From assembly GCA_046050355.1 (NCBI GenBank), contig JBJOPW010000007.1, positions 1 through 49,210 of the forward strand: a DNA stretch of 49,210 nt. Direction: 5' to 3'. The first letter of the stretch is position 1, and each line of letters opens with the position of its first letter. The notes under the pieces are model-generated. The model was not told the DNA's origin and made no database searches. It saw nothing but the letters and a program-made list of their open reading frames with translations. This document shows positions 15,754 through 42,265 of this stretch, one piece after another. Source of the DNA: Candidatus Parcubacteria bacterium (lineage in GTDB: Bacteria; Patescibacteriota; Minisyncoccia; Phycocordibacterales; UBA918). The position numbers and the translations under genes are program-made.

Positions 15754-16899
15754 TTAAACTTCGACAGCTACTGGAACCACTTCAATCATGCCTCGCTGCT
15801 CTGCGATACCGTATGAACCAGTACAAGTCAAACGAACCGTGACGGTGCTCATAATCGGACCAGTTTGCATAGAACCCGAGGTACTGGTAATTGGTACATT
15901 AGAAAGGCCTGGCGCGTTAATCACACAGCTACTGCCAGCTAATGAAGAAATGTTCCAGCTCAGAGAGGCTGTATTACCAAGACGGACTATTGGCGGCATG
16001 ATTTGAAGACCAACAGTTGGCATTGGGGTGGTTGTAGTACCAGTGGGTGTAGTTGTTCCGGTAGCTACACAGATCCCCCCACTGACAGTAAGACCAGCAT
16101 CGCAGGCAACATTGAGAGCTACCGAGGCAAGTATGCCAGTGCCACTACGTGCTTGAAAGGTATTTGTGCCGAGGTTAAGGGTCACTGACTGGTTGCTGGC
16201 ACTATATGCTGTACTGAGCTGACCAACGGGTGCAGTAGCTCTATATGCATTGGGTGTAGGTGACGATGACGAAATACTCCAAGTCAACTGCCCACCACAT
16301 GAACTTGCACCCTGAGGAACAACGCAAGTGGAACCAGAGATAGTAGCTAAAGCTGGGGTCAATTGAACATTTGAGAACATATCGATCCAACCAACAACTT
16401 CGTTGCCCCAAGCATATGAATTAGGATTCATTCCCGACGTCAGGTTGGCACTGACGGTATGATTAGTGCCCCGTAGAGCTATCCACCCGTCCCAACTCCC
16501 GGCATTGCCATTATTGCTCATACTTGAACAATTACCACCAAGCGTCCCCGCACAAGCACGCACCCAGCCTTCCCAAGTTAAATTGGGATAGGTGCCCGTT
16601 AGCTGAGCATTGGCAGCGACATTACCACCTCCAGCTGGAAAAGCCGAGAGTCCGCCGAATTTCACCCAGCCTATATTACTACTCCAACCCCAACCGGTGA
16701 TTGTCCGGTCACTGTTAATTGTTACTTTGTAGTTATTGGTTGCGGCGCAACTGCCATCATTTTGACAATTGAGTGAGATCCACCCAATGTTACTACTCCA
16801 GGCATAACCACGAAGATCAACCGCCGGAATACTCTGCGCCTGGGCGAATTGCGAACTCAATAACATCAAACCAATAATACATAGCTGGTACAGTTTCAT
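15754..16899 (-). CDS. Secreted protein with G(Y/W)AWSSNIGW repeats and a C-terminal Ig-like module
   Basis: Signal peptide; GYAWSSNIGWISL, GWGWSSNIGWVKF, SYAWGNEVVGWI; LSWN...C...LTC. Confidence 0.8.
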   Translation of the reverse strand: MKLYQLCIIGLMLLSSQFAQAQSIPAVDLRGYAWSSNIGWISLNCQNDGSCAATNNYKVTINSDRTITGWGWSSNIGWVKFGGLSAFPAGGGNVAANAQLTGTYPNLTWEGWVRACAGTLGGNCSSMSNNGNAGSWDGWIALRGTNHTVSANLTSGMNPNSYAWGNEVVGWIDMFSNVQLTPALATISGSTCVVPQGASSCGGQLTWSISSSSPTPNAYRATAPVGQLSTAYSASNQSVTLNLGTNTFQARSGTGILASVALNVACDAGLTVSGGICVATGTTTPTGTTTTPMPTVGLQIMPPIVRLGNTASLSWNISSLAGSSCVINAPGLSNVPITSTSGSMQTGPIMSTVTVRLTCTGSYGIAEQRGMIEVVPVAVEV

Positions 16900-17007
16900 A
16901 TACTAGTAGTATATGCTACGAATGACCAAGCAAGCGTAGTTTGTGCACAAATGAAAGAAGTGACTGTGGGAGGACTGTTCTTATTTGCTTCCTCCACGAG
17001 GTCTTCA

Positions 17008-17766
17008 ATCCTTACAGGATCAGTCCGTCTTACAGACGCAGTACAGGTTGTCGTTATTTTTAACAAAATAACTGACAACCTTCTGAAATAACATCCCATG
17101 TTATTTCAGCCTTGTCGCTCGTTTGTTTCGGTGCGCCTCATCTACAATATCCTTCAAAGTCAAATTGCCTGATATAATTTTCACTTTTATTGTTTCAGGG
17201 TCGCCTCGTCTCCTTACAGGAGCTGTCCCCTTGTTGGTTTATTTATTTCGTTTACTCATAAATAAACTCAACAAGTCTTGCGAAAGTGATATTTAATCAC
17301 TTTCTCACACTGCGGCCTGTAAAAGATATTGTAGGAAGCATAACAAGAAAAGCACCCTTTGCAGGGTGCTTTTCTTGTTAGGGTTCTTCTACATCTTTTA
17401 GGGTCAAGTCACTAAGCATATTTCTTCACTGCGTTCGAAATCTACTAAGTGCTTGCTCCTTACAGGAGCTGTACACCTTTTGGATAATTTGTTTCGCTTC
17501 ACTTACAAATTATCACAAAAGGTCTTGCGAAATGGGTCCCATCCCATTTCTCACCCCCGCCTCGCTGGTTCGGCTCTTTTGGAGGTCGCCTCACATCGCT
17601 GCGGCTCGTCAAAGACATAACGGGAAGCATATATAAGAAAAGTACCCCTTTCAGGGTGCTTTTCTTGTTATGCTTCTTCTACAATATCCTTCTTCTTACA
17701 GAAGCTGTACACCATTTGGATATTTCATTTCGCCCTGACTCATGAAATCTCTCAAATGGTCTTGCA
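17008..17766. repeat. Non-coding array of multi-hairpin units with covarying stems
   Basis: TTACA-loop hairpins at 17008, 17026, 17210, 17456, 17692; four of them are followed by a long bulged hairpin; palindromes at 17320-17400 and 17622-17691. Confidence 0.85.
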
Positions 17767-17782
17767 GGACGTGGACGGATTG

Positions 17783-17814
17783 ATAAAAAGGCGCTCTCTG
17801 GAGCGCCTTTTTAT
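17783..17814. terminator. Intrinsic terminator after fusA
   Basis: ATAAAAAGGCGCTC-TCTG-GAGCGCCTTTTTAT. Confidence 0.85.
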
Positions 17815-19985
17815 TAATCCTCTTCCACCACGTCCTTCACTCCTCTCGCTTTCTTGATGTCCATTGCCACGTTTGGTGGTACCACATCATAGTGATCAAA
17901 GGTCATGGTCATACTCGCGCGACCCTGAGTCATAGAACGGAGGGTATTCGTGTAGCCAAACATTTCAGAGAGCGGCACCTGGGCGGTAATCACCTTCTTG
18001 TCGCCAAGATCACCCATTCCTTCAACTTGACCACGCTTACTTGAGATATTGCCGTTGACGTCACCCATGAACTGCTCTGGGGTACGTACTTCAACCTTCA
18101 TCACCGGTTCAAGGAGAACCGCACCGGCCTTGGCCGCGGCCTCCTTAAAGGCGTAAATAGCAGCGAGCTTGAAAGCGATTTCACTTGAGTCCACATCGTG
18201 GAATGAACCGTCATAGAGCTCTACGGTAACATCTTCCATCTTGTAGCCGGCCACAAAACCGCGAGCCATCGCTTCACGACATCCCTTCATGACGGCTGGG
18301 ATGAATTCACCTGGAATCGCCCCTCCCTTGATACTGTTGACGAATTCAAAGTGATCTTCACGAGTAACGTTCTTTGGTACGTCCTTACCTTCTTCAAGCG
18401 GTTGCATTGGACGAATCTTAATTTTGACATGTCCGTACTGGCCACGACCACCAGACTGCTTGGCGTACTTGTAGTCCGCTTCAGCTTCGTGCTGAATCGT
18501 TTCGCGGTAGGCCACCTGTGGTGCACCAACGTTAGCCTCGACACCAAATTCACGCTTCATACGGTCAACGAGAATTTCGAGGTGAAGTTCACCCATACCT
18601 GCAATGATGGTCTGCATGGTTTCTTCATCGGTTGAAACGATAAAGGTTGGGTCTTCGTCAGCGAGCTTCTTCAAGGCTGTACCCATCTTTTCCTGGTCAT
18701 TCTTAGTCTTTGGCTCAACACTCATCGCCACCACTGGCTTCGGGAAGACAATCTGTTCGAGAATAATTGGGTTAGCTTCATCACAGAGGGTGTGGGAGGT
18801 TTTTACATCCTTCAGTCCCACTCCGGCTGCAATTTCGCCAGCGTATACTTCTTCAATTTCGGTGCGCTTATCAGCCTGGAGACGAACGATACGACCGAGG
18901 CGCTCTTTTTGTCCGGTAGTAGCGTTGTAGATATAACTACCAGCCTTCACCACACCTGAGTACACACGGAAGAACGTCAACTGTCCCACAAATGGGTCAG
19001 TCTGAAGCTTAAAGGCGAGCGCACAGAATGGTTCTTCGTCGGAAGCTCCACGAGTGATTTCACTATCATCTTTTGGATTAGTACCCTTCACTGCCTCGAG
19101 GTCAGTTGGAGCAGGAAGGTAATCAACCACACCGTCGAGTACGAGCTGCACACCAATATTCTTGAGGGCTGACCCAGTAAAGACTGGGAAGAGTTCATTT
19201 GCGATTACCGCCTTACGTAGTGTTGTTTTGATTTGTTCAAGCGTTGGTTGTTCACCACCGAGGTACGCTTCCATGAGCGCATCATCATGTTCCACCACTC
19301 GTTCAATAAGTTCGGCTCGGTACATGTCAGCATCATCCTTCAGTTCACTTGGGATTTCGTGCTCTATAATAGTAGTACCCATCTCACCCTCAAAGGTGTA
19401 CGCCTTCATCCGAATCAGATCTACCACCCCTTTGAACTGGTCTTCGGCGCCCCATGGCAATTGCACTCGTACCGCCTTCTTTGAGAGACGATCGAGGATA
19501 CTCTGGTATGACTTTTCAAACGAAGCACCAAGTCGGTCCATCTTGTTGATAAAACAGAGACGAGGTACTTTAGCTTCATCCGCATAACCCCAGTTAGTTT
19601 CTGACTGTGGTTCTACTCCTGCTACGGAGTCAAATACCACTACGGCACCGTCAAGCACACGCATTGAACGCTTTACTTCAGCGGTAAAGTCGATGTGACC
19701 TGGAGTGTCAATGATGTTAAAGGTGTACATCTGTGACTTATCCTTGCGGTCAAGTACATCAGTCTTTGACCAGTTACATGAAATCGCTGCCGCGGTAATG
19801 GTAATACCACGTTCACGTTCCTGTTCCATCCAGTCGGTGACCGTTGCACCATCGTGCACTTCACCGATCTTGTGTGACATACCGGTGTAGAAAAGCACAC
19901 GCTCTGAGGTGGTGGTTTTACCAGCGTCTACGTGAGCAACGATACCGAAGTTACGAAGTTTATTAAGGGGAAATTCTCGAGCCAT
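17814..19985 (-). CDS. fusA: Elongation factor G
   Basis: [44 protein letters not shown]. Confidence 0.98.
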
Positions 19986-24177: not shown

Positions 24178-24806
24178 AACAACCACCGGACTTAGGTCCG
24201 GTGGCTTTGGTTCATCCTAGCCGGATGAACGTCATGCCTTCTACGAAGGCTTTGGTGGTAACTAAGAGATTAGTTTGCTAAATAGATTAGGTTGATCAAT
24301 TTCGTTGTGGTGGTGCTGGTGTTGCACATACCGCCTGATAATCATTTCATCCAGTCCGATGGTGGAGACAAAATAGCCTCGTGCCCAGAGACTTTCTCGT
24401 TCGTAGAGTCCGTGGGTACGTTTAATCTTTTTCTTCATCCAGGCTGATGATTTCCCCTTCAGTAACTGCATGATGTATGAAATGGAGTCTCTTGGTGATG
24501 CAGACAGTACAAGATGAATATGATCATCTTGTATATTGAGTTCGATGATTTCCCAGTGTTTCCACTTGGTAATTGATTCGAACGTTCTCCGTAATTCATC
24601 CTTTACCTTGGCTGGACCAAGTACCTTGCCGCGGTATTTGGGAGTCCAGACTAAGTGGTATTTCATTTCATAGTAACAGTGTGATAGTGTTTTGATGGTA
24701 CGTTTGCGCATACGTATTTGAAGTTATTACTAAAGCCGTGCTGCCGCACGGCTTTAGTATATGCGTTGCCTTCAAACGGACACTCCGGCTAAAGCCGGAG
24801 GTTTTT
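24178..24806 (-). mobile_element. IS200/IS605-family insertion sequence (tnpA only); boundaries approximate
   Basis: tnpA flanked by subterminal hairpins CCACCGGAC-TTAG-GTCCGGTGG (24183-24204) and CTCCGGCT-AA-AGCCGGAG (24783-24800). Confidence 0.8.
24262..24711 (-). CDS. tnpA: IS200-family Y1 HUH transposase
   Basis: YHLVWTPKYR, DHIH, LKGKSS, LWARGYFVST, IRRYVQHQ. Confidence 0.95.
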   Translation of the reverse strand: MRKRTIKTLSHCYYEMKYHLVWTPKYRGKVLGPAKVKDELRRTFESITKWKHWEIIELNIQDDHIHLVLSASPRDSISYIMQLLKGKSSAWMKKKIKRTHGLYERESLWARGYFVSTIGLDEMIIRRYVQHQHHHNEIDQPNLFSKLIS

Positions 24807-41952: not shown

Positions 41953-42265
41953 AACTCAATAAGTGTAGCATATTCAACCTGCGAAAATTGCTCTGGGATA
42001 AATTTAGCACGCATCAAATGACCCTAGATTTGAGGTAAAATGCGGTATGGTAAAGGGTGATGGGTAGTATTCTCTACGAGGATGCCAGCTGTTCTGATTA
42101 AAAATAGCGACAACCTGTACTGGTCATGTAATGACCCATTTCGCAAGACTCATTGTGAATATTTGTGAGCTTTGCAGAACAAATAGTCCAATGAGTGGAC
42201 AGCCTCTGTAAGAGGTACACTCACGGAAATTCGCCATTGTCGCACTATGCGCTCTGTGACTCATT

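Follow-up and report, generated by a model that had tools for sequence, protein, structure and literature searches.

A mosaic array of small hairpin cassettes at the 3′ end of fusA in a Parcubacteria genome, probably assembled by serial insertion

The BIMEs and REP elements of enterobacteria, and the REPINs, are mosaics of extragenic hairpin modules that act at the DNA level and often lie behind genes and beside terminators. In IS608, the target tetranucleotide is read by base pairing with a guide internal to the element. Integrative elements at the 3′ ends of tRNA and tmRNA genes supply a replacement gene end and leave the old one behind as a direct repeat. Bacteria of the candidate phyla radiation have tiny genomes with few recognized mobile elements. 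Here, we describe an array of hairpins behind the elongation factor G (EF-G) gene, fusA, of a Candidatus Parcubacteria bacterium (contig JBJOPW010000007.1; the 49,210 nucleotides [nt] analyzed are referred to as the window). The feature is real, and it is a mosaic non-autonomous repeat or insertion cassette.

Each of the nearest described systems shares features with the array, and the array lacks at least one feature that defines each of them. BIMEs, REP elements, and REPINs also form extragenic mosaic arrays of hairpin modules in variable combinations with structure kept over sequence, and the modules described here are likewise extragenic, repeated, and recombined in different orders. Unlike BIMEs and REP elements, however, they show no GTAG-type REP head and no consistent link to a RAYT gene, the units are ∼95 nt long with three hairpins, and some carry direct and inverted copies of the 3′ ends of neighboring genes. 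Direct repeats of a gene 3′ end at both borders, with the gene left intact, are shared with the integrative elements of tRNA and tmRNA genes and with the integrase-less derivatives of these elements, but the cassettes here are 95 to 190 nt long, encode nothing (no integrase lies within them), and target many different genes. Integron cassette arrays and attC sites resemble the array in serial stacking at one site, in a cassette order that varies between relatives, and in bulged, folded sites in which structure, not sequence, is conserved. Unlike integron cassettes, those described here contain no open reading frame (ORF), and no integron integrase was found (an Xer-like protein scores 71.8 bits against a cutoff of 265). 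An attC reading of the long hairpins was rejected, as their feet, judged by eye only, do not read RYYYAAC...GTTRRRY. Rickettsia palindromic elements are also small palindromic repeats able to join a reading frame, and the last seven EF-G codons lie in the cassette nearest fusA (cassette A); compared by description, they differ in residing in frame within genes, whereas the cassettes here enter at the very 3′ end and bring a new stop and terminator. RtT RNA of the Escherichia coli tyrT operon (RF00391) is another parallel, in that its tandem repeats follow a tRNA gene and contain that gene's 3′ end in copied form, but the array has no RtT match at an E value of ≤10, the architecture differs, and the family described here is not confined to tRNA loci.

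The fusA gene (17814..19985, minus strand) is separated by a 914-bp gap from its downstream neighbor (15754..16899, minus strand), which encodes a 381-amino-acid repeat protein with no NCBIfam family match, and the gap contains the hairpin array. The original prediction, made from the letters of the window, described TTACA-loop hairpins with differing but complementary stems, and all five were found on the plus strand with perfect 4-bp stems (starts at 17008, 17026, 17210, 17456, and 17692). Each is followed by C(A/T)GT(A/C)C, as described. Also recovered were the long hairpins, each with a single bulged base, GTCTTGC in three units, and the three further hairpins, and the unit spacing, given as ∼185 to 245 bp, measures 184, 246, and 236 nt from start to start. 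The array had been called noncoding, which holds, but relic fusA coding ends, translated below as X1, X2, and X3, are present in it. The array also reaches as far as 17814, where fusA has its stop codon, and the hairpin of the first cassette includes the last seven fusA codons. The strand running with fusA and the neighboring tRNA genes is the reverse complement, on which the loop reads TGTAA.

The array had not been recognized as a tRNA, riboswitch, or ribozyme, and the searches agree. ARAGORN found 0 tRNA genes in the window, and a search of positions 16700 to 18000 against Rfam 15 returned 40 matches at an E value of ≤10, 0 of which reached their own gathering score. No ribozyme or riboswitch class was among the matches on the array at this threshold, save weak leader-peptide noise on the terminator hairpins. 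The top match, mir-9457 (35.8 bits against a gathering score of 90), falls on a relic terminator hairpin (T2), and the terminator-like hairpin directly behind fusA (T0) has a weak match to STnc320, a terminator-like small RNA (29 bits against a gathering score of 50). Of three short ORFs compared from the array, none has an NCBIfam match (0/3). A tRNA-like or T-loop reading of the short hairpin was dropped, since nothing beyond shape agrees, and group I P1-like and group II EBS/IBS-like readings were rejected because the element is too small and is antisense to genes.

The fusA gap (931 nt) folds far better than its shuffles on both strands (z scores of −15.9 and −17.6, 20 shuffles each). A genome-wide scan found 45 perfect N4-TTACA-N4′ hairpins, most of which share the flanking motifs, against a chance expectation of ∼7 in 2 × 0.94 Mb (simple arithmetic, equal base use); with five of them within 700 bp at the fusA gap, chance does not explain the hairpins. 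Pairing was evaluated on an alignment of 32 copies from the same genome, read on the fusA strand, with a consensus of 15 pairs in the long hairpin and 4 pairs in the short hairpin. Paired cells make up 94.0% of 588, compared with 59.1% in shuffles and 34 to 43% in slid controls, all counted on 32 paralogues from one genome. Double changes occur in 19/19 pairs, and 0/500 shuffles reach any of the measures, although the shuffle test overstates independence because the alignment rows are paralogues of a single genome. G-U cells are few (16/588, ∼3%) and A-C or C-A cells fewer (5 on the fusA strand), and the pairing is therefore almost purely Watson-Crick with a mild wobble excess on the fusA strand. 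The TGTAA loop and two junction motifs are invariant among the aligned copies. These tests support the original proposal that structure is kept over sequence, through selection for, or generation of, a folded structure.

On the fusA strand, the unit core comprises GTGA, a short hairpin, GCAAGA, a bulged hairpin of 38 to 48 nt, GTAC(A/T)G, and a 4-bp hairpin with the TGTAA loop. A covariance model of the unit (R1) was built, and it found copies in its own genome and in relatives. Counted at an E value of ≤0.01, R1 has 39 matches in its own 0.94-Mb genome, 7 of them outside the training set, and all 37 matches examined lie outside long ORFs. Matches were found in 35/41 genomes of a sample of the order, the own genome included (34/40 relatives); the unit-bearing relatives are 24/24 of the other genomes of the genus and 10/16 from other families. 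Copies per unit-bearing genome range from 2 to 93, a span reached within one genus. In an even draw across the phylum, 1 R1 match was obtained among 150 other genomes under stricter filters, which recovered 25/39 of the own matches. As far as these sequence searches reach, the family appears to occur mainly in this bacterial order of the candidate phyla radiation. A distant-mode comparison of one canonical unit (unit B) with phage and plasmid records gave no match, and literature searches covering titles and abstract openings gave nothing on the hairpin-cassette family.

Read on the minus strand from fusA outward, the array contains the following features, whose coordinates were counted on the extracted sequence and verified by coordinate-only extraction. 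L074 is a metagenome contig, and G007 is a relative.

17814..17837, minus strand: X0, the live last seven fusA codons and stop (KDVVEED*), the 5′ arm of the cassette A large hairpin, which pairs with X0′ across the terminator
17785..17812, minus strand: T0, a G+C-rich terminator-like hairpin between A and T runs, immediately past the fusA stop
17766..17784, minus strand: X0′, an inverted copy of the fusA end, the 3′ arm of the large hairpin
17692..17765, minus strand: cassette A core, consisting of GCAAGACC, a 48-nt long hairpin, TGTACAG, and the short hairpin CTTC-TGTAA-GAAG (R1 match)
17668..17691, minus strand: X1, a relic fusA end (KDIVEEA*), 24/24 identical to the live fusA end of L074
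17635..17667, minus strand: T1, a relic terminator hairpin (repeat analysis and terminator scan)
17611..17634, minus strand: X1′, the inverted partner of X1 (from the sequence)
17555..17610, minus strand: spacer common to L074 and G007 (alignment)
17460..17554, minus strand: unit B, a canonical 95-nt element (insertion relative to L074)
17456..17459, minus strand: GGAG, the 3′ strand of the unit B short hairpin, which pre-exists at the empty site of L074
17405..17455, minus strand: a separate hairpin module, present in L074 and at two further loci of the own genome
17378..17398, minus strand: X2, a relic fusA end (KDVEEP*) (translation)
17344..17377, minus strand: T2, a relic terminator hairpin (repeat analysis and terminator scan)
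17321..17343, minus strand: X2′, the inverted partner of X2 (inverted-repeat search)
17210..17308, minus strand: unit C (R1 match at 17206-17304, E value of 3.4e-18)
17134..17154, minus strand: X3, a relic fusA end without a stop codon (KDIVDEA), which recurs as a direct repeat at 17672 and in the live fusA end at 17818
17008..17133, minus strand: composite D (R1 match at 17022-17109, E value of 2.1e-15)

Three relic fusA 3′ ends (X1, X2, and X3) are thus retained in the array, two of which (X1 and X2) keep a stop codon and terminator. Because X0′ is an inverted copy of X0, the segment of X0, T0, and X0′ forms one long hairpin; T0 itself is an inverted repeat with 20-nt arms (95%) and is absent from the output of a simple terminator scan. 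Cassette A (R1 match at 17688-17788, E value of 4.3e-17) is followed by an extra AAG codon between its short hairpin and X1. Unit B is the best R1 match of the genome (E value of 1.1e-20) and runs GTGA, an 8-bp hairpin, GCAAGA, a 47-nt long hairpin, TGTACAG, CTCC, and TGTAA. Unit C has the same plan, with a 9-bp hairpin after GTGA, GCAAGA, a 46-nt long hairpin, GGGACAG, and the short hairpin CTCC-TGTAA-GGAG, and is separated from X3 by a spacer. Composite D is one unit nested in another, in the order 3′ half of a long hairpin, 12-bp hairpin, second long hairpin, and two short TGTAA hairpins, and it has a counterpart at C11:22271-22374 (91 to 93%). The separate hairpin module recurs in the own genome at C2:44510-44552 and C2:59413-59455 (86%).

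Comparison with relatives identifies both filled and empty sites behind fusA. R1 units occur at 6/30 fusA loci, the own locus included (own, 4; G007, 2; G001, 2; G018, 1; G015, 1; and G021, 1), and all 11 matches lie on the fusA strand. The site is without units in 24/29 relatives, and the filled relatives carry 1 or 2. The loci with a single insert (G018, G015, and G021; the G015 sequence stops 228 nt past fusA) share one layout: a new gene end with stop, in some cases followed by a small terminator, then an inverted copy, the core, the short hairpin, the old gene end with its stop, and the old terminator. EF-G ends in RGVKDIVEEA* in G007, whose C terminus corresponds to the translation of X1, and in KDVVEEA* and KDVVDEA* in G020 and G015, other close relatives; in more distant members of the genus, the protein ends shortly after RGV, and the tails are highly variable.

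Metagenome contig L074 has no unit cores. Its fusA end is identical to X1 (24/24 bases) and is followed by a terminator, an inverted copy, the spacer, the hairpin module, and then another gene end with another terminator. Against this contig, the window shows three gains, namely, cassette A upstream of X1, unit B, and ∼430 nt after T2. Window 17692..17554 aligns with L074 771..908 at 83%, and unit B is a clean 95-nt insertion, as L074 907/908 joins window positions 17554 and 17459 with a 2-nt overlap. At this empty site, the four bases of the future 3′ strand of the short hairpin are already in place. In G007, the segment nearest fusA aligns collinearly with the window starting at X1 (74% over 472 nt), and cassette A (window 17839..17735 and 17731..17657) aligns at 82% and 88% with a distal position 274 to 548 nt further down, where the counterpart is interrupted by a nested unit. 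The cassette is proximal in the window and distal in G007, so one cassette occupies different gene-end copies in two lineages. As the closest relatives are only ∼74 to 85% identical in this region, exact insertion boundaries come from the comparison with L074 alone, together with low-depth contig joints; a 20-kb comparison with G007 for exact empty sites yielded no boundaries that could be drawn, at ∼74% identity and with different repeats in the gap. The low-depth joints come from metagenome runs X4 and X5 and bypass unit B (17454 to 17561), cassette A (17688 to 17842), or both (17342 to 17811). These joints, seen in contigs at 88% likeness and possibly from other organisms or repeats, are compatible with array variants in relatives. 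One of two metagenome stretches found, L075, was rejected as unrelated DNA sharing the 23-mer by chance.

Direct repeats of the gene end and terminator inside the array could also be produced if the fusA 3′ end and its terminator had been duplicated in tandem on the spot and had then diverged, without any mobile element, and the two flanking copies of gene end plus terminator in G001 are nearly identical by eye. We consider this explanation highly improbable. The unit cores recur in other genera and at over 30 further loci of this genome, unit B is inserted cleanly, cassette A takes different positions in the own genome and in G007, and T0 and T1 are unrelated hairpins.

The context of the other copies in the genome bears on whether the units function as RNA or as DNA. 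A tRNA gene is found no more than 160 nt upstream of 15 units, each of which runs in the direction of that gene. In 9/15 of these, a copy of the 3′ end of the adjoining tRNA follows the short hairpin (scores of 13 to 21, against shuffle means of 4.7 to 6.1, with a threshold of ≥13 in the 30 nt starting with the 3′ strand of the short hairpin), while a tenth has a better match to another tRNA-Ser end. The cassettes at gene ends carry the last bases of the gene, a small terminator, and an inverted copy of the gene end. Away from tRNA genes and fusA, the orientation of units is mixed: of the 30 for which the surrounding genes lie clearly more on one strand, 12 follow that strand and 18 oppose it, in a count in which clusters are not independent.

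Under an RNA interpretation, the units would be cotranscribed with the upstream gene as a 3′-end stabilizer, processing signal, or small RNA, and the covariation would reflect RNA folding. Such a role is suited by the co-orientation of the tRNA-linked (15/15) and fusA-linked (11/11) copies and by the excess of G-U over A-C (16 to 5) on the fusA strand, two observations that stand as a counterpoint to a DNA reading, and also by the invariance of the loop and the two junction motifs. Contigs of metatranscriptome library X20 contain related units, though DNA carryover is possible; these contigs do not show transcription. We nevertheless judge an RNA role quite unlikely, as units A to D lie behind the terminator-like hairpins T0, T1, and T2, 18/30 of the units not linked to tRNA genes or fusA run against the genes around them, and wobble is limited to ∼3% of cells. 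Copy number, moreover, ranges from 2 to 93 in one genus, the fusA site is empty in 24/29 relatives, and no Rfam family reaches its gathering score. Two options had originally been put forward, a structured RNA motif and a BIME/REPIN-like single-stranded DNA element. The second fits much better than a locus-specific structured RNA, because the family is a dispersed mosaic repeat of 39 copies with presence and absence at the same site, a position behind terminators, near-absent wobble, and mixed orientation.

We consider, with moderate confidence, that small non-autonomous DNA cassettes integrated one after another at the very 3′ end of fusA to form the array, with the hairpins as cis-acting sites at the DNA level. 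We infer that a cassette, most simply circular or otherwise free when it arrives, would integrate by a single crossover within a short gene-end segment. The incoming cassette would then supply new C-terminal codons and displace the prior gene end and terminator downstream, and repeated rounds of integration could have left the relics X1, X2, and X3. Such a crossover model reproduces the hybrid ends, the extra AAG codon, the direct repeats of 20 to 55 nt, the forced orientation relative to the gene, and a possible movement between gene-end copies. The smaller canonical units of 95 nt enter the array itself as well, with no duplication or one of only 2 nt. Neither a circular form nor a junction read was observed. 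Pairing that is conserved while the sequence varies suggests that the hairpins are needed in DNA, probably in single-stranded form, and in at least one case (unit B), half of the short stem is target sequence that was there before. Target pairing is not general, since the nested composite D has a short stem whose 3′ strand does not come from the target. For the inverted gene-end copies, templated extension of the terminator palindrome is one possibility, although speculative.

The machinery that might move such cassettes was considered among the genes of the genome. It encodes an IS200 transposase (E value of 9.4e-37), three RAYT-like genes, and single copies of an Xer-type recombinase, a P4-type integrase, and a group-II-intron-like reverse transcriptase (score under its cutoff); none of the last three is linked to units. 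Members of the TnpB families PF07282 and PF01385 were not found in the genome. A search for Y2 transposases (PF04986) also gave no match, but its control matched 0/14 control genomes, and the result therefore carries no information. A P4-type integrase acting in trans was rejected, as one integrase cannot account for many different target genes.

The IS200 and RAYT-like genes raise an alternative in which the units are non-autonomous single-stranded DNA elements of the IS200/IS605 type (PATE- or REP-like), mobilized in trans by a Y1 HUH transposase. On the TTACA strand, such an element would begin with TTACA, end with TCAC, and be inserted 3′ of a tetranucleotide read by pairing with element bases 6 to 9. 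As in IS200/IS605 PATEs and IS608, unit B is an insertion (95 nt) with little or no duplication (≤2 nt); it lacks terminal inverted repeats and has hairpins close to both ends, and the 4 nt flanking its TTACA side, which the empty site already contains, are the complement of an internal 4-mer. At least 13 units terminate in TCAC behind the second hairpin (by reading of the sequences), the stems are essentially Watson-Crick, and genomes with a Y1 match carry a mean of ∼24 units, compared with ∼9 in unit-bearing genomes without one (simple arithmetic over related genomes that are not independent). Guide-type agreement of the 4-mer, however, is uneven: unit B against L074 is one clean case, nested insertions in short-hairpin loops agree in 3 of 4 nt, and composite D disagrees. 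In contrast to PATEs, the 4-mer differs from copy to copy, a search for a matching autonomous element gave none, and the units show no strand bias relative to the local gene or GC-skew direction taken as a proxy for replication (12 same and 18 opposite). A Y1 match was not found in 12/35 unit-bearing genomes, such as G020 (22 units) and G010 (14 units, 99% complete), and is present in 3/6 genomes without units. The resident IS200 (window 24262..24711) has end hairpins unlike the units, and the three RAYT-like genes are flanked by other palindromes. Furthermore, many copies, including the fusA- and tRNA-linked cassettes, are flanked by gene-end direct repeats of 20 to 55 nt, which peel-and-paste transposition does not make, and the predicted junction of cassette A is off by 2 to 3 nt. 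On this balance, movement by a Y1 transposase seems unlikely.

Serial integration of gene-end cassettes could take a more specific form, which we put forward tentatively and regard as doubtful. The family may be a minimal, protein-less integrative cassette that homes to the very 3′ ends of essential genes (tRNAs and fusA) by pairing variable stem strands with the target, with the TGTAA loop and junction motifs as the handle for a host or other single-strand DNA recombinase. If so, the covarying stems would be a natural programmable guide, with a logic like that of IS608 guides or IS110 bridge RNAs, and the cassettes would keep altering tRNA gene trailers as well as the C-terminal tail of EF-G.

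Although few mobile elements are recognized in the tiny genomes of the candidate phyla radiation, this hairpin-cassette family reaches 2 to 93 copies per genome in one genus; it reshapes the 3′ ends of core genes time and again yet does not inactivate the genes. The array behind fusA can be read as a record of successive insertions, in which old gene ends and terminators are retained in order. If the target is chosen by pairing with the cassette's own stem strands, the family would be a very small natural system of guided DNA insertion; if it is not guided, the family is still an uncatalogued source of false structured-RNA and small-ORF calls in these genomes. Insertion of such cassettes would also explain the hypervariable C-terminal tail of EF-G in the genus.

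Across the genus, at the fusA loci L021 to L050 compared in the genome and its relatives, the C-terminal tail of EF-G is hypervariable in both length and sequence past the conserved ...ARG. This variability would fit a history in which incoming cassettes repeatedly replaced the end of fusA. The array behind fusA and the rest of the window hold the following features.

Features in the window
15754..16899, minus strand: gene for a 381-aa protein with GW-rich repeats
17405-17455: separate 51-nt hairpin module inside the fusA array
24262..24711, minus strand: a single gene coding for an IS200/IS605-family transposase of 149 aa (NF033573, E 9.4e-37)
42051-42219, plus strand: second cluster of the TGTAA-unit family, two R1 units (matches to the covariance model)

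The GW-rich protein, which had no match in NCBIfam, is encoded by the downstream neighbor of fusA, a gene conserved in a relative's genome (G007) and in L074, a relative's metagenome contig whose fusA end lacks unit cores; sequence is also conserved immediately 5′ of its start codon. The 51-nt module is likewise present in L074, and copies that match it at 86% lie near tRNA-Arg and tRNA-Leu genes elsewhere in the genome (G000 C2:44510-44552 and C2:59413-59455). In the second cluster, one R1 unit sits within the short-hairpin loop of the other, and both adjoining genes run antisense to it. The hairpins flanking the IS200/IS605 transposase gene bear no likeness to TGTAA units.

Features elsewhere in the genome (G000)
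C5:47685-47802: truncated unit downstream of tRNA-Leu(CAG)
C11:987-2036, minus strand: group-II-intron-like reverse transcriptase (349 aa; TIGR04416, 156.5 bits versus a cut-off of 300)
C2:111287-111997, C1:5784-6458, and C1:69071-69706: three RAYT-like Y1 proteins (211 to 236 aa)

The tRNA-end copy trailing the truncated unit does not correspond to the acceptor end of the adjacent tRNA-Leu(CAG) but to that of tRNA-Leu(TAG), whose gene is on a different contig; this hints that units, or whole tRNA genes, move between tRNA loci. The reverse transcriptase gene lies at a contig end. The RAYT-like protein on C2, the one of the three scanned against NCBIfam, gave a REP_Tyr_transpos match below the cut-off. 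Each of the three RAYT-like genes is surrounded by its own, different set of palindromes, which suggests additional REP-like families in this genome.
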